A DNA stretch of 63,024 nt from IMG/VR virus record IMGVR_UViG_3300045120_000291, positions 1 through 63,024 of that record. One strand, 5' to 3'. The position numbers were made by a program, and so were the translations under genes. Shown here piece after piece: positions 5,053 through 16,634 of the stretch (position 1 is its first letter; every line of letters begins with the position of its first letter). The DNA comes from a virus (taxonomy: Duplodnaviria; Caudoviricetes). Below the pieces are notes generated by a model. The model saw only the letters and a list, made by a program, of their open reading frames with translations, was not told the DNA's origin and did no database searches.

Positions 5053-5442
5053 ATGTCGCGCAAGAACCGTCAAACCGAATCGCAGAAATCCGAGAACACC
5101 GCCCCGGCCGCGGACGCTGCCTCGCAGCAGACCGAAACCCAGAACACCGTCGTCGCGGAAGTTGCGCCGGCCCCGAAGCCTGCCCGCCTGGAGGCGAACG
5201 GCGTCAAGCAGCCCAAGGCGGGCGGTTTGTGCCGCGCTGTCTGGGACTACTGCGCGGGCGTCAAGGAAGCCACTGGCGTCCTGCCCACCGTGAAGGAAGT
5301 CAAGGCCCACGCGCAGGCGGTCGGCTGGAACCTGAACAACGCGTCCATCGAATACTACGCGTATCGCAAGTTCGCGGGCATCCGCGGACGCGTCCAGGCC
5401 CCGCCTGCTGCCCCCGCGACGGACGCCGCGACCTCCGTCTAG
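5053..5442 (+). CDS. Putative DNA-binding protein, paralog of 46785-47282
   Basis: GAGGAG SD, strongly biased codons, NGVKQPK...LC..VW...E...YRKFAGI.GR domain. Confidence 0.75.
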   Translation: MSRKNRQTESQKSENTAPAADAASQQTETQNTVVAEVAPAPKPARLEANGVKQPKAGGLCRAVWDYCAGVKEATGVLPTVKEVKAHAQAVGWNLNNASIEYYAYRKFAGIRGRVQAPPAAPATDAATSV

Positions 5443-5464
5443 TCCGCCCACAAGCTGACACAGG

Positions 5465-5490
5465 AAGCGCCCTTCTGGGCGCTTTTTGTT
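5465..5490 (+). terminator. Rho-independent terminator
   Basis: AAGCGCCC-TTCT-GGGCGCTT followed by TTTGTT. Confidence 0.85.
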
Positions 5491-5854
5491 GACTATGATT
5501 TAACATCTGCTCCATACGCTAGGGCATTGTCCGGACCATGCCTAGATGCCCCTGTGTGGACGCATGGGGCAGACATCTACTTGTCTATGGTAATGGTATA
5601 GATTGTAATCGTTGTCATTGCATGCGCTGACACAGTGACGACAGGACACGATCCGGGCCCGGCCCTGATGAAGATAAATCGTCCGGAGGCGAGCGCCTCC
5701 CCGCCCCAGCTCCGATTCTCTATTCTAACTCGACCCCTCTACTTCTCATGTGAACTATCTACATCCACTACTCGAGAGACCCATCCAAACTTCGATATAA
5801 CGCCTGTTACAAATAATCCTTGCAATCCCAAACCTTCTCGCTTACACTAAACGC

Positions 5855-6529
5855 ATGCAAAGAACTGAACGCCAACATACTTGCAGACACGGAACCTTCA
5901 AATATGGTCCGTGTGCGGACTGTTCACAAGAGGTTCTCGATAGGTATGAGATACACCAACTATCCCATCCCTCCCAGAACCCTGACCAATCTGCGCTTTT
6001 TCAGGCGCATTTCGCGGGCGGCGACTTTTCCGCCGAGCAACTCGAACACGCTTGGTTCCACTCGCAAGTTGAACCTGTGGTCACAGGTAAGCCACTCTGG
6101 TTCTTCACCAATTACCAGGCTGAGAACGATCCTGGAATCATAATTGGAGGCTATATCTGCGCGCGGAATGCAATCGAGGCGAATCAGGCGGCTGAATTAC
6201 GTGGGCTTGGTGAGCTAGTTGCTGCGAGTGCGGGAACGCGGGCACCTTATAAGACCGTGAGTCAGTTAATGCGCCAGCGGAACCGAAATGATGTCGAGAT
6301 TCTGCATGGCTGCATGTACCTCGGGTGGCTAGCCGAGAAGGCTAAGGTGACCACACTGAGCAAACTCATGACAGACGACGGACTTTTGCACGAAGTTTCG
6401 CATGCTATCAGCTTCCAACACGACGAAGACTACCTGCCTGACCATTCCTGGAAGGAATTAACGATGAAAGTCGAGGAATTGGAACAGAAAATTCCTGGCT
6501 ATTGCCCGAAATTTGAGGCGCAACCATGA
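5855..6529 (+). CDS. Hypothetical protein
   Basis: 224-aa ORF with N-terminal CxH/CxxC; ATGA overlap with the next gene. Confidence 0.65.
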   Translation: MQRTERQHTCRHGTFKYGPCADCSQEVLDRYEIHQLSHPSQNPDQSALFQAHFAGGDFSAEQLEHAWFHSQVEPVVTGKPLWFFTNYQAENDPGIIIGGYICARNAIEANQAAELRGLGELVAASAGTRAPYKTVSQLMRQRNRNDVEILHGCMYLGWLAEKAKVTTLSKLMTDDGLLHEVSHAISFQHDEDYLPDHSWKELTMKVEELEQKIPGYCPKFEAQP

Positions 6530-6939
6530 AAGTCGGCTTTACAGGCTCGCACTCAGGCATGAGCCTTGCGCAGCAGAAGTCTCTAGCTGACCTTTTTCGC
6601 GGAATTGAATTCAGTGAATTCCATCATGGTGACTGTATTGGTGCTGATGTTATAGCGCACCGGATCTGCCTCGAGAATTCCAACAGACCAATAGTGATTC
6701 ACCCGCCTGTGAAAGACACAAAACGCGCATTCTGTACGGGCGCCAACGTAACTATCCTTCCAACCGAGCCTTACCTGATCCGAAATCAGAAGATTGTGCT
6801 GGCTTGCGATCTGTTGATTGCTACGCCGCGCACGGGGATCGAGTCTTTGCGCTCTGGAACATGGTCCACAGTCCGTTTCGCTCGAAAACGCGGCAAGCAA
6901 TACATAATCATCTTGCCTGATGGAGTGAAGCGTGGATAA
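6526..6939 (+). CDS. SLOG-superfamily (YspA/DprA-like) nucleotide-binding protein
   Basis: VGFTGS, HHGDCIGAD, RNQKIV...D and SGTWSTVRFA motifs. Confidence 0.75.
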   Translation: MKVGFTGSHSGMSLAQQKSLADLFRGIEFSEFHHGDCIGADVIAHRICLENSNRPIVIHPPVKDTKRAFCTGANVTILPTEPYLIRNQKIVLACDLLIATPRTGIESLRSGTWSTVRFARKRGKQYIIILPDGVKRG

Positions 6940-11036: not shown

Positions 11037-11237
11037 ATGAGCCAGAAGCCGCCGAAGCCCCATGTGGTCAAGGTCTACGGTTATAAAGACGTAACTGATA
11101 CCGACGGACTCACTCGGCAACTGGTAAAGATGGGTCACTTTGAATTTCCGAGCAAGTGTGCGGCGGAGAAGTTTGCCTCCGAGCAGCGCAAGAAGCCTGA
11201 AGTTTCGAGTGCTGTGCTAGTTCCACAAGAAGCTTGA
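11037..11237 (+). CDS. Hypothetical protein
   Basis: AGGAG SD. Confidence 0.6.
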   Translation: MSQKPPKPHVVKVYGYKDVTDTDGLTRQLVKMGHFEFPSKCAAEKFASEQRKKPEVSSAVLVPQEA

Positions 11238-11369
11238 TACGGCTACAACGCGCTACAGGCGAGCGTCCGCTGTAGCGCCGCTACCCTACCGGGTACAGGT
11301 GCGCGCGTATAGGTGCGCAGCGCTGCAACCCTACAGCAGCATTCAAATGGACTCAGTAACGGGGTTACA

Positions 11370-11816
11370 ATGGGCATAAATATCCGGCAAAAGGGGCAAG
11401 GCGGGGAAAGAGAAGTTGCCGATGCCATGAACAGCATTGTCAACGATGTCTATCAAAAGTACGGCCGTCCTCTTCCGGAAAAGCCCGTTGTTCAACGAAA
11501 TCAGAATCAATCTGCTGTAGGCGGCTCTGACCTGAAGAACCCTTTCAGGGTTGCAATCGAAATCAAGAGACAGGAGACACTCTCCATTAATACATGGTGG
11601 ACGCAATGCTGCAAATCAGCAAAGGAATGCAATGAAACCCCTGTCCTTATTTTCAGACAGAATGGGAAGAAATGGCGTGTCATAATGAATGCTGAGATCC
11701 CGATTGTCAAGCATATGGCAGGTCTGCAGGCGCGAGTGGAGATCGATTGGAACACGTTCCTCCAGTGGTTCTATTGGATAGTTGACAGGGCGGTTCATGC
11801 GGAGGAGTTCCCATGA
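11370..11816 (+). CDS. Holliday junction resolvase (PD-(D/E)xK)
   Basis: RQKG..GERE, GGSDL and IEIKR motifs. Confidence 0.8.
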   Translation: MGINIRQKGQGGEREVADAMNSIVNDVYQKYGRPLPEKPVVQRNQNQSAVGGSDLKNPFRVAIEIKRQETLSINTWWTQCCKSAKECNETPVLIFRQNGKKWRVIMNAEIPIVKHMAGLQARVEIDWNTFLQWFYWIVDRAVHAEEFP

Positions 11817-12043
11817 CAAAGACTGAAGTGCTACAATTGATTTCTCGTGAGCAGTTTAATCAGGCTGCTAACACGAAAAAATTGAACGGCCTACAAGAGG
11901 TTTATACTGCGGCAGCGATGATGAACGACCGTACCCGGTGCAATGAAATCGCAGAACACCTTCATAATGTCTTGGACTTGCAGCTCGATAGCATTCGACA
12001 TATGAGTTACCTCCAGAGCGCTTACATCGACGCTGCACCATAA
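11813..12043 (+). CDS. Hypothetical helical protein
   Basis: GGAGGAG SD; ATGA overlap. Confidence 0.6.
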   Translation: MTKTEVLQLISREQFNQAANTKKLNGLQEVYTAAAMMNDRTRCNEIAEHLHNVLDLQLDSIRHMSYLQSAYIDAAP

Positions 12044-12121
12044 ACGCGCCACTAGCTTTTCTCCCCTGTTAGTGTTAGTATCGCGAGAACGCGCATACCG
12101 ACACTTAAAGGGTCTCTTCCG

Positions 12122-12874
12122 ATGGACTGGCCGACTGCCGAATACGCAGCGAAAGTGTTCACAGTAATCGGTGGAGCTGTCGCTATCGCATATTCTGGAA
12201 TTAAACACGTCTGGCCTTGCGGAAAGCGCTGCGCTCACGTCACCAAATGCGCCTGGAATCGAGTTAAGATAGTTTGGGCGGCTTTTGAAGACCTGCCGAC
12301 GACTCAAGGTCTGGTTGCTGAACAAGCTCTCGCCATTACCAATCTCAGAGCAATGGCTGTCCGTTGCAATGAAGCTGTGATAACAGATACTCCTGGATCA
12401 TTAAAGCATCAGATTAGTATGCTGTATGATCAAGGTGAAAGTCGTGGACTAATCCTAGTTGAGCAAGGCGAACAGCTCGGAAAGCTAGACAAGAAAGTTG
12501 CGGTCATTGGTAACATCCAGAGGGCGATGTTAAGCACGAACCCTCACATGGCAACTTTCGAGGCAGACTCGCAGGGCTTGTGGGCGCATGCCAACCGCAC
12601 ATATTTCAAGTGGAGTGGGCAGCAAGTATTAGATGCCCGCCGCTGGGGGTGGCTGAATGCTGTTCACCCAGAAGATCGAATTCGGGTACGTCGTGAGTGG
12701 GAGTCTTGCATTAGTGACACTCGCCGCTTTGAAATGCGGTATAGAATGATAAACATCACGACAAATATCACTTTTTTGGTTGACTGCGAAGCAGATCCGA
12801 TCCCGGAAGGAATGACCCCTCCGGATCGTTGGTTCGGTACGATAAATCAAGTTCAGACCGGAGACGTACATTGA
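12122..12874 (+). CDS. Membrane-anchored PAS-domain protein, first gene of the lysis cassette
   Basis: N-terminal hydrophobic helix and coiled coil, then a PAS fold: FEADSQG...ANRTY..WSG, GWLNAVHPEDR..V...W, FEMRYRM, WFGT. Confidence 0.8.
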   Translation: MDWPTAEYAAKVFTVIGGAVAIAYSGIKHVWPCGKRCAHVTKCAWNRVKIVWAAFEDLPTTQGLVAEQALAITNLRAMAVRCNEAVITDTPGSLKHQISMLYDQGESRGLILVEQGEQLGKLDKKVAVIGNIQRAMLSTNPHMATFEADSQGLWAHANRTYFKWSGQQVLDARRWGWLNAVHPEDRIRVRREWESCISDTRRFEMRYRMINITTNITFLVDCEADPIPEGMTPPDRWFGTINQVQTGDVH

Positions 12875-13437
12875 ACACTCCAATCCTTTCGTCAGACCAG
12901 CCAGCCACAACGCAGAAACCGAAATCAAAGAAAGGTCCAGCTATTGGTATCGGTTTGATCGTCGCTGCAATTTTGACCACATTGCTGCCTGACGAGGGTC
13001 GCAAGCTCACACCCTACCGCGACAGCGCAGGCATCTGGACCGTCTGCATGGGCATCACCGGGCCGGACGTATGGCGCCATAAAGGCTTCCCATTCACCGA
13101 AGACGAATGCAAGCAGATGGAGTCCGGATACGTTGCAAAAATGGTTCGGCAGATGGAACCGTGCCTGACCCAGGACGCAGTCGACTCTATGACTGTTCAG
13201 GAATGGGTTGCCTACGGTCACTTCGGTTACAATGTTGGCACTCCTGCATTCTGCCGGTCCACAATCGTCGCACACCTCAATGCTGGAAATCATGAGGGTG
13301 CCTGTAAAGCCATGTCGCGATGGGTATTCATCACCGTACACGGTAAGGCGGTGAACTGCCGGCAAGCCGGCCACCTATGCCCAGGGATTGTCAAACGCCG
13401 CGACAAAGAAGTTCAGATGTGTCTAGACGCCTTGTAG
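12871..13437 (+). CDS. SAR endolysin (GH24 lysozyme)
   Basis: TTG start overlapping the PAS gene stop, with GGAG SD. Lys-preceded Gly/Ala-rich TM, then an E-x8-D-x5-T triad (DEG...YRDSAGIWTVC); FGYNVG and GIVKRR motifs. Confidence 0.9.
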   Translation: MNTPILSSDQPATTQKPKSKKGPAIGIGLIVAAILTTLLPDEGRKLTPYRDSAGIWTVCMGITGPDVWRHKGFPFTEDECKQMESGYVAKMVRQMEPCLTQDAVDSMTVQEWVAYGHFGYNVGTPAFCRSTIVAHLNAGNHEGACKAMSRWVFITVHGKAVNCRQAGHLCPGIVKRRDKEVQMCLDAL

Positions 13438-13446
13438 GGGAATGCC

Positions 13447-13827
13447 ATGAGTTATGCTGATTGGGCTTTGAATTTTCTGCTTCGGATTTTTGCTGTTCCG
13501 GAGTTGTCCGCTATCCTGACTGCAATCGCAGCAGGTCTCGCAATGACTTTCCTTTCGCAGTTGGCCATGCCTGGCAGACTGGAAGTCCTCAGTGCGAAGC
13601 GATACGGTCGGGTGATCATCTTCTTCGTTGTGATCGCGGTCGCTGTGTTCATGCGCCCGACGCCACGAGTCGCTCTCTGGGCATTCACGGTGGCCGTGTT
13701 CCTTCCGAATTTCTATGAATGGCTGCAAGGTCTCTTGTTCGAGCGCTACCCTTGGCTCAAACCGAAGGCCCTACAGACGGACGCGGAACAGGTGCAGCGT
13801 CAGCTCGACAAGGCCAATAGCCAGTAG
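13447..13827 (+). CDS. Putative holin/pinholin
   Basis: Three to four hydrophobic segments and a charged C-terminus; lies between endolysin and spanins. Confidence 0.65.
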   Translation: MSYADWALNFLLRIFAVPELSAILTAIAAGLAMTFLSQLAMPGRLEVLSAKRYGRVIIFFVVIAVAVFMRPTPRVALWAFTVAVFLPNFYEWLQGLLFERYPWLKPKALQTDAEQVQRQLDKANSQ

Positions 13828-13835
13828 AGGGCTTT

Positions 13836-14231
13836 ATGTTCAAGGAATATAAACAGATTATTGAATTGATCCTCACAGTTATCCTTGCGATCCTGATTGG
13901 TTGGGCAATCTACACTGTCTGGAGCTGGCACAATGCAGCCCTCGTCAATGCGGCCACTGTCCAACAGCAGGCCGCGACAGGAGAAGCTGCGGGCGAAGTC
14001 GTTGTCGGTTTGAAATCGGCAACGGCTGACACTGCTAAGACGGAAGAAACCGTCAGACAAGCCAGGAGTAGTTATGCGACACAATATGCGAAGGTACTGT
14101 CTACTGATGCGTCTGCTGCTTCTTGGAATGACGCTCATGTTCCTGTCAGCTTGCGCGACACGGCCCGTGCGCGTCGAACAGCACGCGACGGACCTGCAGA
14201 TCCTTCAGCTGGGAGTTCACGCTCTCACTGA
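13836..14231 (+). CDS. Rz-like i-spanin
   Basis: N-terminal TM followed by an Ala-rich helical region. Confidence 0.75.
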   Translation: MFKEYKQIIELILTVILAILIGWAIYTVWSWHNAALVNAATVQQQAATGEAAGEVVVGLKSATADTAKTEETVRQARSSYATQYAKVLSTDASAASWNDAHVPVSLRDTARARRTARDGPADPSAGSSRSH

Positions 14232-14475
14232 GCCCCGTTCGGTCTCTGGGGAAATCCAGCACCCGGATGAAGCAGTGACAAATGGGCAGTTGATGGGAGT
14301 CGCCCTGGACCTGGACGACGCACTGTGGTTATCGAATCAGGACAAGGTTCGCTTGCGGACTTTTGTCGACTCGAGTCTTCTTGTCATCGCAAAGGCGCAG
14401 ATGCCACCTTGCCATTGGTATCAATTTATCTGCAAGCACGATCAGAAGAAGGCGTTATCCCCTTTGCAACCCTGA
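14107..14475 (+). CDS. Rz1-like o-spanin (lipoprotein)
   Basis: MRLLLLGMTLMFLSAC lipobox; overlaps the i-spanin in another frame. Confidence 0.75.
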   Translation: MRLLLLGMTLMFLSACATRPVRVEQHATDLQILQLGVHALTEPRSVSGEIQHPDEAVTNGQLMGVALDLDDALWLSNQDKVRLRTFVDSSLLVIAKAQMPPCHWYQFICKHDQKKALSPLQP

Positions 14476-14495
14476 TGATTTTATGCTGACATCTA

Positions 14496-14524
14496 TTGCA
14501 TACTGTCCCGATCCCGCTTATACT
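14496..14524 (+). promoter_or_regulatory. Sigma70-type promoter upstream of terminase
   Basis: TTGCAT-N17-TATACT. Confidence 0.6.
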
Positions 14525-14559
14525 CGGGTCGCTGGCGGGGTTATCTGAAGGAGTAAACC

Positions 14560-15066
14560 GTGGCTCAGTTCTGGACGGAAGATGCATTGGCGCCTCAGTT
14601 GTCTGAAGGCGAGAAGCAGCTTCGTGACCGTTTTGTGAACGAGTATATGGTTGATTTTGACCAGAAAGCTGCTGCTATCCGCGTCGGCTTTCTACCTTCG
14701 TTCGCAGAGCAGTACGCCTCGGTTTTCATGCAGGAGTCCTATGTCCAGCAGAAGATTGCTGAGAAGCAGAAGGAATCTGCGACCGACGAAAAAGTCGAAT
14801 CTGAGGAAACGAAGCGCCGTATTCGTGCCGCCCTTCTGCGCGAGTCCAACTATCGTGGCCCGGGTTCTTCCCACGCTGCGCGTGTTGGCGCTTTAGGTAA
14901 GTTGACCCAGATTTACGGCATGGAAGCTCCGATCAAGACGCTGCAAGAATTGACGCACAAGGGTGGCGTCATGATGGTCCCGGCGATTGCCAGCATCGAG
15001 GATTGGGAAAAGGCTGCGCAGCTCATCCAAGAGAAGCTTCGTCGAGATAGTGAAGTCAGTGGCTAA
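14560..15066 (+). CDS. terS: Terminase small subunit
   Basis: RFVNEYMVDFDQKAAAIRVGF HTH motif; AAGGAG SD; directly upstream of terL. Confidence 0.85.
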   Translation: MAQFWTEDALAPQLSEGEKQLRDRFVNEYMVDFDQKAAAIRVGFLPSFAEQYASVFMQESYVQQKIAEKQKESATDEKVESEETKRRIRAALLRESNYRGPGSSHAARVGALGKLTQIYGMEAPIKTLQELTHKGGVMMVPAIASIEDWEKAAQLIQEKLRRDSEVSG

Positions 15067-16634
15067 TGAATGCCGTCCTTGCGCCGAATGAGCGGGTTGT
15101 CTGGCAACCTCTACCAGGCTCGCAGACATTAGCTTTATCATGCCCCGCGCATATCATAGTCTATCATGGTACGCGGGGTCCAGGTAAAACAGATTCACAG
15201 TTGATGCGCTTTAGGCGCCGCGTCGGTCAAGGTTACGGCAGGCACTGGCGCGGCGTCATTTTTGACCGTGAATACAAGAACCTAGATGATTTGGTCTCCA
15301 AGTCGATGCGTTGGTTTCCTGAGTTTAAGGACGGCGCGCGCTTCCTGAGTTCCAAATCTGATTATCGTTGGGTCTGGCCTACAGGCGAAGAGCTGCTGTT
15401 CCGCGCTGTCCGTCGTGATACCGATTACTGGGGATATCACGGGCAGGAGTTTCCATTCATTGGGTGGAATGAGCTCACCAAATACCCGAACGATAATCTG
15501 TTCGACATGATGATGTCTTGCAATCGATCTTCGTTCCGCCCAGAAGACTTCCCATTGTGGAATGCTGAAGGCAGCGAGATCATTGGCTTCTTACCTGAAA
15601 TTCCTCTTGAAGTCTTTTGCACCTGTAACCCGTTCGGCGTTGGACACAACTGGGTCAAGAAGCGCTTCATTGACAAGTCGCCAATGGGTAAGCTCTTCCA
15701 GAATGTGATCAACGTCTTTAACCCGCGCACACAGCGCAGAGAAGACATCACTAAGACACAAGTCCATCTCTTTGGCAGCTACCGCGAGAACAAATACCTG
15801 AGCCCGGAGTATGTCGCCGAGCTCGAAATGATCACGGACCCGAACAAGCGGAAAGCCTGGCTGGGCGGGAGCTGGGATGTGGTCAGCGGCGGTATGTTCG
15901 ACGATGTGTGGGATTCGCAGACGCACGTCATCTCCCCTTTCATCATCCCACACAGCTGGCGCATCGATCGCTCCTTCGACTATGGTTCTTCCAAACCTTT
16001 TTCCGTTGGCTGGTGGGCAGAATCTGATGGTTGCGATGTTCAACTCGCGAATGGCAAGTGGATGAGCACTGTAAAAGGTGACCTTTTCCGCATCGCAGAA
16101 TGGTACGGATGGAACGGCAAGGCTAATCAAGGCCTTCGGATGCTTGCAAATGAAATTGCAACGGGTATAATTGAGCGCGAGATCAACATGGGGATTCACT
16201 CCCGTGTAAAACCTGGACCAGCGGATAATTCCATTTACAATGTCGACAACGGAAACAGCGTTGGCGCTGATATGGCAAAACCTGTCAAGGTTCATGGGAA
16301 GGTTTATCGAGGGGTAGAGTGGAACAGATCCGATAAGAATCCAGGTAGTCGCATCGCAGGATGGGAAAAAATGCGATGGTACTTCGACGGTGCAAAGACG
16401 AAGTATTTCCTGGATAAGAATGGGGATAAGATTCCTATACCTCGCGAACGCCCTGGATTGTTCATCTTCAATACTTGTCGCTGCTGCATAGATCAGATTC
16501 CTGGATTAGCGCGTGACGAAGTTGAAGTTGATGATGTGGATACGGAATCCGAGGATCATATCGGAGACGAAATGCGTTATCGCGTCCTAGCTTCGAACAT
16601 GGGCGCCCGTGGCGGTCGAACTTCAGGTATTTAA
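15066..16634 (+). CDS. terL: Terminase large subunit
   Basis: GTRGPGKT Walker A, FIGWNELT Walker B variant, TCNP, FDYG nuclease motif, EDHIGDEMRY. Confidence 0.95.
   Translation: MNAVLAPNERVVWQPLPGSQTLALSCPAHIIVYHGTRGPGKTDSQLMRFRRRVGQGYGRHWRGVIFDREYKNLDDLVSKSMRWFPEFKDGARFLSSKSDYRWVWPTGEELLFRAVRRDTDYWGYHGQEFPFIGWNELTKYPNDNLFDMMMSCNRSSFRPEDFPLWNAEGSEIIGFLPEIPLEVFCTCNPFGVGHNWVKKRFIDKSPMGKLFQNVINVFNPRTQRREDITKTQVHLFGSYRENKYLSPEYVAELEMITDPNKRKAWLGGSWDVVSGGMFDDVWDSQTHVISPFIIPHSWRIDRSFDYGSSKPFSVGWWAESDGCDVQLANGKWMSTVKGDLFRIAEWYGWNGKANQGLRMLANEIATGIIEREINMGIHSRVKPGPADNSIYNVDNGNSVGADMAKPVKVHGKVYRGVEWNRSDKNPGSRIAGWEKMRWYFDGAKTKYFLDKNGDKIPIPRERPGLFIFNTCRCCIDQIPGLARDEVEVDDVDTESEDHIGDEMRYRVLASNMGARGGRTSGI

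Follow-up and report, generated by a model that had tools for sequence, protein, structure and literature searches.

The 63,024-bp stretch analysed here, called the window below, is the complete IMG/VR virus record IMGVR_UViG_3300045120_000291 (Caudoviricetes; CheckV completeness 100%, no end repeats found). Its lysis cassette is headed by a gene for a protein with one transmembrane (TM) segment and a PAS domain, which we call TM-PAS. TM-PAS represents a genuine and clearly delimited family of phage proteins that has not been described so far. Judged from gene order and overlapping codons, it is wired into the lysis cassette of the window phage and of its nearest relatives as the partner of a signal-anchor-release (SAR) endolysin, and it is probably a component, not described before, of the apparatus that times the bursting of the host. 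That the protein acts in lysis control in one way or another is very likely when all three lysis readings considered below are summed. The reading that we prefer, with a rough probability of 0.5, is drawn by analogy with the releasin gp25 of phage Mu and makes TM-PAS a controller of SAR endolysin release.

The cassette comprises five genes on the + strand, lying between a RusA-like resolvase gene and the terminase genes, in the order TM-PAS, lysozyme of glycoside hydrolase family 24 (GH24), 126-residue holin candidate, Rz-like inner-membrane spanin (i-spanin) and Rz1-like outer-membrane spanin (o-spanin). The open reading frames (ORFs) and their positions are as given in an earlier sequence-only reading of the same DNA, which had proposed a signal-gated lysis system headed by a PAS sensor protein. 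That reading had also pointed to a TTGA coupling between the first gene and a SAR-type endolysin, and this is borne out. The TGA stop codon of the TM-PAS gene overlaps the TTG start codon of the endolysin gene, with a GGAG 7 nt upstream of the TTG. The endolysin matches Pfam Phage_lysozyme (E 3.8e-24) and is 33% identical to the Mu SAR endolysin gp22 (E 6e-22). It has an N-terminal tail of net charge +3 (KPKSKK) followed by a Gly/Ala-rich helix, and this anchor, with a mean Kyte-Doolittle (KD) hydropathy of 1.95 and 42% Gly, Ala, Ser and Thr, has the architecture of the SAR type.

The TM-PAS protein and its family

The N-terminal tail of TM-PAS is 8 residues long with a net charge of -2. The anchor that follows (residues 9-27) is weakly hydrophobic and Gly/Ala-rich, with a KD mean of 1.58 and 53% Gly, Ala, Ser and Thr, and the 15 residues after it have a net charge of +4. 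Pfam PAS_3 (PF08447) matches residues 158-211 with 29.5 bits against a curated cut-off of 25.6 (E 9.2e-07). An AlphaFold2 (AF2) model built from a 76-sequence alignment, with a mean predicted local distance difference test (pLDDT) score of 93.9, has a long helix from the membrane anchor (residues 3-87), a short turn, a return helix (94-139) and then, over residues 143-243, a five-stranded sheet with helices (strands 143-148, 154-157, 203-210, 217-227 and 236-243). Searching the PDB with this model in Foldseek returned at least 500 matches at E<=0.001, and all the matches listed are PAS or LOV domains, among them ARNT, HIF-2a, NifL and short LOV proteins, with a best TM-score of 0.80 on the target (8px4_B). 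A profile search of the PDB sequences found PAS proteins only, although the sequence matches are weak (best E 1.2e-06). In the viral structure library BFVD the top two matches are proteins of 195 and 205 residues named 'PAS domain [uncultured Caudovirales phage]'. Because a curated Pfam threshold and an independent fold match agree, the PAS assignment is unlikely to be a chance one, and the N-terminal TM segment, basic flank and PAS fold read from the letters alone are confirmed. The coiled coil of that reading survives in part: long helices are indeed modelled, but their form is an antiparallel helical hairpin.

The absence of an output domain also stands. Pfam gives PAS_3 and nothing else on TM-PAS, and the 68 longer proteins that match it (best E 7.3e-18) are all partial matches covering at most 64% of the query; those inspected are multi-domain cellular PAS sensors, and no fusion of TM-PAS to an output domain or a lysin was seen among them. 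Cellular PAS_3 proteins such as sensor kinases and GGDEF/EAL proteins have the same fold and a GWGWxNxVHPxDR-type motif. In those proteins the PAS domain stands beside output domains, mostly in arrays, whereas the phage family has a single anchored PAS domain without output. Neither Pfam (E<=1) nor PHROGs (E<=0.01) relates TM-PAS to a holin or antiholin family.

The family is larger than a quick search suggests. A word-indexed search gave only 5 relatives (31-51% identity, all with PF08447), whereas an exhaustive HMMER search gave 4,275 proteins at E<=1e-3. Of 155 retained proteins, 81 are shorter than 300 residues, and dropping 5 of these that lack an N-terminal hydrophobic segment and are probable fragments left a family set of 76. 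At least 76 members, each representing a protein cluster, share a common architecture, in which a short N-terminal tail, one TM segment and a basic flank precede a helical linker that varies in length, with the PAS domain at the C-terminus, and a BLASTP graph joins 75 of the 76 in one connected component. Their N-terminal tails are negative in 56 members, neutral in 17 and positive in 3, and the 15 residues after the TM segment are positive in 72. We predict from this charge distribution an N-out/C-in topology with the PAS domain in the cytoplasm, since the flank after the TM segment is more positive than the N-terminal tail in 72 of the 76 members. The sequence-only reading had placed the domain there as well, opposite to that of the T4 holin T, and the positive-inside pattern of the family agrees with it. 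The remaining cytoplasmic part is net negative in 64 members (mean -3.1; -2 in the window's protein). Compared with the i-spanins of the same loci, TM-PAS anchors are less hydrophobic (KD 1.89 versus 2.24, Mann-Whitney p 0.006) and have a larger share of Gly, Ala, Ser and Thr (0.41 versus 0.31, p 0.07).

The description of the protein as a sensor, by contrast, is unproven. The only positions conserved in at least 90% of the 76 sequences are M1, G152, W177, R201 and G239, which leaves four such residues in the soluble part, and there is no common cofactor signature and no invariant His, Cys or cofactor-binding residue across the family. The NCRFLQ motif of LOV domains is absent from TM-PAS on reading of its sequence. 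Flavin binding of the LOV kind, or heme binding, was considered for the PAS domain and rejected as unsupported, the family having no conserved Cys or His. As a separate observation, a linker motif, (P)NGG(S/G)S(L/I)xD or NGGxSxxD, is conserved in many members in the family alignments and appears to coincide with the modelled hairpin turn, at window residues 88-93 (12383-12400).

The family is widespread in uncultured phages. A tblastn search with four diverse members (those of the window, L185, L180 and L163) against 50,697 phage records gave no match at E<=1e-3, and hence no cultured carrier, although in a database of this size distant PAS matches could fall below that threshold. A single-protein scan with P0040 gave 13 pattern matches, of which 0 were confirmed. 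Scanning 185,579 species genomes yielded 80 loci. The best match spans residues 148-209 only and resembles a generic cellular PAS domain, and no close prophage copy is evident in the match table.

Gene neighbourhoods of the relatives

Searches with family alignments gave 1 + 8 + 27 viral loci, 10 further loci on new contigs (of 23) and 6 metagenomic loci, a total of 52. The metagenomic part was drawn from 7 of 80 loci that were examined (L082-L087 and L091), of which six have short TM-PAS genes, L091 being a multi-PAS kinase. At 70% identity the 52 loci fall into 29 clusters. L219, whose protein shows no similarity to that of the window in BLASTP, was left uncounted, and 28 clusters remained. 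The G+C content of the analysed loci runs from 0.31 to 0.67, a spread that suggests diverse hosts.

In 8 of the 28 clusters the next gene downstream of TM-PAS encodes a cell-wall hydrolase. Seven of these are of the GH24 type (L082/083/085, L084, L163, L164, L165/166, L167/168 and L169) and one is of the NlpC/P60 type (L174-177; E 1.3e-10). The NTGA overlap of stop and start codons recurs in eight related loci (L082, L083, L084, L085, L163, L167, L168 and L169), and in four others (L164, L165, L166 and L174) the TM-PAS and hydrolase genes overlap by 11-26 nt. The lysozymes of the relatives are 23-51% identical to that of the window. All 11 partners that could be aligned, the window's included, match Phage_lysozyme; D51 and T57 are invariant among them, E42 is kept in at least 90%, and every N-terminal tail is net positive, from +1 to +4. 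With a crude null of one endolysin in 85 genes and the clusters taken as independent, 8 of 28 directly upstream of an endolysin corresponds to P ~9e-10; this value is only indicative, because the clusters are not phylogenetically independent. A complex prediction that combined TM-PAS (76-row alignment) with the SAR endolysin (11-row alignment) gave a score of 0.00 (mark 0.32) and weighs neither way.

Four further clusters of the 28 have lysis genes in the same gene run. In L214 and L216 the TM-PAS gene precedes, in this order, the genes of a 2-TM protein, of an SLT endolysin (phrog_669, E 3.1e-49; Pfam SLT) and of an Rz-like spanin; in L086 it precedes those of Rz-like and Rz1-like spanins. 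L172 has the order CHAP protein, Rz-like spanin (E 2.8e-21), small ORF and TM-PAS, and in L087 an endolysin-like protein (phrog_33083, E 2.4e-09) is encoded five genes downstream. The link of homologues to lysis genes that the sequence-only reading had asked for holds for these clusters together with the eight above, and it is not seen in the 14 of 28 that are taken up below.

Eight loci that form a single cluster come from T7-like phages, with a large terminase subunit (TerL) 46% identical to T7 gp19 (E 3e-160) and a tail-fibre N-terminus resembling gp17. Here TM-PAS lies between the tail-fibre genes and the genes of the small (TerS) and large terminase subunits, which is the slot of the T7 holin gene 17.5. 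Another locus, L001, was the one viral relative that the first alignment retrieved. Downstream of TM-PAS it has, in order, genes for a multi-TM protein, a lipoprotein-like product, a protein whose N-terminus bears a TM segment, a lipoprotein, TerS and TerL. It looks like a lysis cassette by architecture only, as none of these neighbours (a multi-TM protein of 133 residues, the lipoprotein-like ORF of 266/368 residues, and proteins of 145 and 106 residues) has a lysis family match in Pfam or PHROGs.

These relatives bear on the role of TM-PAS in the cassette. According to the sequence-only reading all canonical lysis roles in the window are already filled and TM-PAS is an extra component, and this is not supported by the related cassettes. 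We scanned the small membrane proteins in 8 GH24-coupled cassettes (the 7 clusters and the window), and a protein with at least 2 TM segments was found in the window only. No multi-TM candidate is present within 2.5 kb upstream and 3 kb downstream in L163, L164, L165, L167 or L169; for L082-L085 and L166 the scan covered little or no upstream sequence. Because no multi-TM holin candidate was found in the other GH24-coupled cassettes and one group sits in the T7 holin slot, TM-PAS looks less like an extra and more like an endolysin partner in the position of a holin or releasin.

Proposed releasin-like control and the competing readings

In the account of Mu lysis by Chamblee et al. (2022; PMC9239132), gp25 is a releasin of 99 residues with an N-out/C-in topology and a mainly anionic cytoplasmic domain. 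Mu lacks a holin, and its SAR endolysin gp22 is not released unless gp25 is present, a dependence that gp22 owes to its lysines 6 and 7. Proteins of the gp25 family, DUF2730, are paired with diverse endolysins. TM-PAS resembles gp25 in several respects. Both have a single N-terminal TM segment with the soluble part on the cytoplasmic side (predicted for TM-PAS), and this part is acidic, in TM-PAS for the majority of members counted above. Both are encoded in a lysis region just before the terminase genes, both have a GH24 SAR endolysin with a cationic N-terminal tail as partner, both families occur with several endolysin types, and Mu is without a holin, as are most of the TM-PAS-related cassettes. 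The shared topology, the acidic cytoplasmic part, the cationic SAR partners, the other hydrolase partners and the frequent absence of a holin are the reasons why we prefer a releasin-like role. Some features differ: TM-PAS is 250 residues long, with a hairpin of helices and a PAS domain; its gene immediately precedes that of the endolysin, with an overlap, where gp25 is encoded a few genes downstream; and TM-PAS is not confined to transposable phages.

On the releasin-like reading TM-PAS would insert N-out/C-in by its weakly hydrophobic helix, and the hairpin and the PAS domain would lie at the cytoplasmic face of the inner membrane, the hairpin returning the PAS domain to the vicinity of the bilayer. 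On the same side, the short cationic N-terminal tail of the endolysin would keep its signal anchor embedded in the bilayer. Owing to the overlap of stop and start codon, TM-PAS and endolysin would be made in a fixed ratio, and TM-PAS would then govern when the SAR anchor leaves the membrane and the lysozyme becomes active, as gp25 does in Mu. The weakly hydrophobic anchor may suit packing against the SAR helix, or exchange with it. Through the PAS domain, release could be tied to a signal in the cytoplasm or to oligomerisation driven by the domain. The effect on lysis itself, its direction towards release and not retention, and any sensing are parts of this scheme that we infer. A stronger version, that phages have repeatedly adopted a tethered cytoplasmic PAS sensor as a holin-independent, signal-gated switch for SAR release (a 'sensor-releasin'), is conceivable and no better than tentative.

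Several observations weigh against the releasin-like reading. Half of the clusters (14 of 28) are without a lysis neighbour. In four clusters, with 11 loci, TM-PAS lies just upstream of a Mom-like gene, with a ribonucleotide-reductase gene upstream in three of them; in two others an HNH-like gene and a portal gene flank it, in one the gene of a 4-TM protein and a primase gene do so, and in the remaining ones its neighbours are unknown genes. The TM-PAS and endolysin genes may travel as one module, and the clusters are then not independent, although the partners differ in enzyme type. TM-PAS has no match to DUF2730 (PF10805) at E<=1, and hhalign comparison of the family alignment with gp25 gives a probability of 1.8%, so there is no homology; the holin and antiholin families of Pfam and PHROGs are likewise unrelated to it. 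As no typical cofactor residue is kept across the family, the role of the PAS domain may be confined to dimerisation. The window has a holin candidate of its own, and TM-PAS need not be required there. Finally, the window TerL is 71% identical to that of Acinetobacter phage HD01 and 69% to that of Pseudomonas phage Iggy. These cultured relatives have the order RusA, endolysin, holin, further genes, TerS and TerL, without TM-PAS, and they lyse without it, so the gene is dispensable in the lineage of the window. Their endolysins and holins are unrelated to those of the window; within a shared synteny this is a clear case of cassette exchange, the whole cassette having been replaced and TM-PAS having arrived with the SAR lysozyme.

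The same facts have to be set against other explanations. TM-PAS might itself depolarise the membrane like a holin or pinholin, as a new single-TM class with N-out/C-in topology. Oligomers formed by way of the hairpin and the PAS domain would make small lesions, the loss of membrane potential would free the SAR endolysin, and the PAS domain would set the trigger point. Its place as first gene of the cassette, and in the gene 17.5 slot, would fit, most of the GH24-coupled relatives have no other holin candidate, and SAR endolysins need only depolarisation for release. A single-TM holin with a large soluble domain also exists: the T4 holin T has one TM segment, about 200 residues and a large soluble domain for regulation, and works with the antiholins RI and RIII. 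The likeness lies in a lysis protein with one TM segment and a large regulatory soluble domain, and, in T4, in timing tied to a signal. The soluble domain of T is periplasmic and of a different fold, however, where the regulatory domain of TM-PAS is a predicted cytoplasmic PAS domain; the T4 endolysin is cytoplasmic and not of the SAR type, and T has no sequence relation to TM-PAS. With a predicted topology opposite to that of T, no holin family match, one weakly hydrophobic helix (KD 1.58) that would be a poor pore former, and a 2-3-TM holin candidate present in the window as well, we regard a holin-like action as unlikely. Membrane proteins that control SAR release are also known from phage 21 (pinholin S21-68 and antiholin S21-71) and from P1 (LydA and LydB, with the SAR endolysin Lyz). 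Their action relies centrally on helices that are Gly/Ala-rich and weakly hydrophobic, which recalls the TM-PAS anchor, but they have at least 2 TM segments, no soluble sensor domain and belong to other families. For a pinholin-type role the 126-residue protein of the window is a better candidate than TM-PAS.

Somewhat less probable again is a retention factor similar to an antiholin, which would keep the SAR anchor or the holin in check until the PAS domain reads a cytoplasmic signal, and so delay lysis with an outcome comparable to lysis inhibition in T4. The evidence of context is the same as for releasin-like control, translational coupling gives the stoichiometric amounts that fit a binding inhibitor, and the Gly/Ala-rich anchor could pack on the Gly/Ala-rich SAR helix, with the separate holin candidate of the window as another possible target. 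Most related cassettes, on the other hand, have no holin to inhibit, and there is no similarity to known antiholins; an acidic cytoplasmic part next to a cationic N-terminal tail fits retention or release alike. We give about the same low weight to TM-PAS being no lysis protein at all, but a membrane sensor or accessory factor (in host signalling, exclusion or envelope remodelling) that rides in late operons. Stand-alone PAS proteins are versatile, and both the clusters without lysis neighbours and the cultured relatives without the gene would be expected from such cargo. What speaks against it is the hydrolase gene directly adjacent with overlapping codons in 8 clusters and for two hydrolase types, the SLT and CHAP hydrolases in the same run elsewhere, and the group in the holin slot of T7-like genomes. 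Coupling so tight would be unusual for unrelated cargo.

The statement of the sequence-only reading that no PAS lysis regulator has been characterised is consistent with the literature. We found no paper that describes a PAS domain together with holin, endolysin and spanin in a search from which subscription-only literature was excluded. Papers that mention both a PAS domain and a lysis cassette are unrelated to the matter. Among the papers listed, none on releasins concerns PAS, and for antiholins, pinholins and SAR proteins a PAS domain occurs only in a paper on Streptococcus mutans lrgA, which is not a phage system. The answers known for lysis timing are holin clocks, a few antiholins and one releasin, and a sensor-type domain in a lysis cassette would tie the timing of the burst directly to the internal state of the host. 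Should TM-PAS gate SAR endolysins, it would be a second, unrelated solution to the problem solved by the Mu releasin, would explain many SAR-endolysin cassettes without a recognisable holin, and would offer a ligand-controllable lysis module for laboratory use. Should signal gating also prove true, a virus could read the energy, redox or metabolite state of its host to choose when to burst, and there would be a new class of lysis proteins across unrelated phage lineages, missed so far because no cultured phage carries TM-PAS. The family is easy to test, and as the partner endolysin is a homologue of Mu gp22, standard Escherichia coli lysis assays should apply.

Other cassette genes and side observations

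The features of the window are collected in the table. The sequence-only reading had named a multi-TM holin candidate and Rz/Rz1 spanins downstream of the endolysin; the spanin assignments are supported, and the holin remains a candidate. Hydropathy of the 126-residue protein gives 2 clear TM segments and a third, weaker one read by eye. It has no Pfam or PHROG match and no similarity to the holins of Iggy or HD01 or to the multi-TM protein of L001; its nearest Atlas cluster has the automatic name 'Holin family protein' at 0.89, under the 0.9 line, which is a lead only. The i-spanin matches phrog_214 'Rz-like spanin' (E 6.3e-4) and has a TM segment at residue 8. The o-spanin matches phrog_456 (E 3.6e-6) and has the lipobox L-S-A-C in its translation, with a Pfam LysC match (E 3.5e-3) below the cut-off. 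A scan of 11200-15200 for promoters and terminators gave counts no different from the shuffle range.

Table. Positions in the window of the cassette features and flanking genes
Feature	Position	Strand	Basis
TM-PAS gene, membrane-anchored PAS protein of 250 residues	12122..12874	+	ORF, Pfam PAS_3, AF2, Foldseek
N-terminal anchor helix, residues 9-27	12146..12202	+	best hydrophobic 19-mer
Basic juxtamembrane stretch and long helical hairpin, residues 28-139	12203..12538	+	AF2
PAS domain, residues 140-245, predicted cytoplasmic	12539..12856	+	AF2 strands and helices, Foldseek
Coupling site: Shine-Dalgarno GGAG 12860-12863, TTG start 12871, TGA stop 12872-12874	12860..12874	+	sequence
SAR-type GH24 endolysin, 188 residues, cationic N-terminal tail	12871..13437	+	Pfam Phage_lysozyme, similarity to Mu gp22
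Holin candidate, 126 residues, 2-3 TM segments	13447..13827	+	hydropathy
i-spanin (Rz-like), N-terminal TM segment	13836..14231	+	phrog_214
o-spanin (Rz1-like) lipoprotein	14074..14475	+	phrog_456, lipobox; overlaps 3' part of i-spanin gene in another frame
RusA-like/PDDEXK resolvase gene, upstream of cassette	11313..11816	+	phrog_244 (E 4.8e-24), PF24608
TerS and TerL genes, directly downstream of cassette	14560..16634	+	phrog_5334 (E 2.9e-33), TerL similarity

The related loci contain small genes that deserve mention in their own right. Between the SAR lysozyme and i-spanin genes of three independent cassettes there are tiny single-TM ORFs, in L083 at 1346-1423 (25 residues), in L084 at 1671-1805 (44 residues) and in L169 at 6644-6772 (42 residues). 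Their third-position G+C is 0.84-0.85, and another holin candidate is missing from all three cassettes; these ORFs could encode mini-holins, or proteins that act together with TM-PAS. In clusters without recognisable lysis genes, directly upstream of TM-PAS are 4-TM proteins in L178 (4568-5017, 149 residues) and L210 (4552-4908, 118 residues) and, in L198 (4293-4824), a TM protein of 64 residues with a lipoprotein of 127 residues, all without a PHROG match, and these may be holin or spanin partners that have gone unrecognised.

Two lipoprotein-like products are also of note. The 266-residue ORF of L001 (6973-7773) has a lipoprotein-type signal (…LTGC), stands where a TM-PAS cassette would have its endolysin and has no Pfam or PHROG match; it may be an undescribed lipid-anchored wall-degrading enzyme. 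In the T7-like phages with TM-PAS in the holin slot a 225-residue lipoprotein is encoded after TerL (L185 7910-8587; also in L186, L195, L196 and L217), with a second hydrophobic segment at about residues 120-127 and no PHROG match, and this might be a one-piece spanin.

The Mom-like neighbourhoods (L179-L184 and L187-L192; for example L182 2967-6429) are low in G+C, 0.32-0.42, and far from recognisable lysis genes, and they are a second, unexplained context of the family. In L206, on a 203-kb viral contig, a patatin-like phospholipase gene (5414-6322 on the - strand; Pfam E 1.3e-22) adjoins TM-PAS on the opposite strand.

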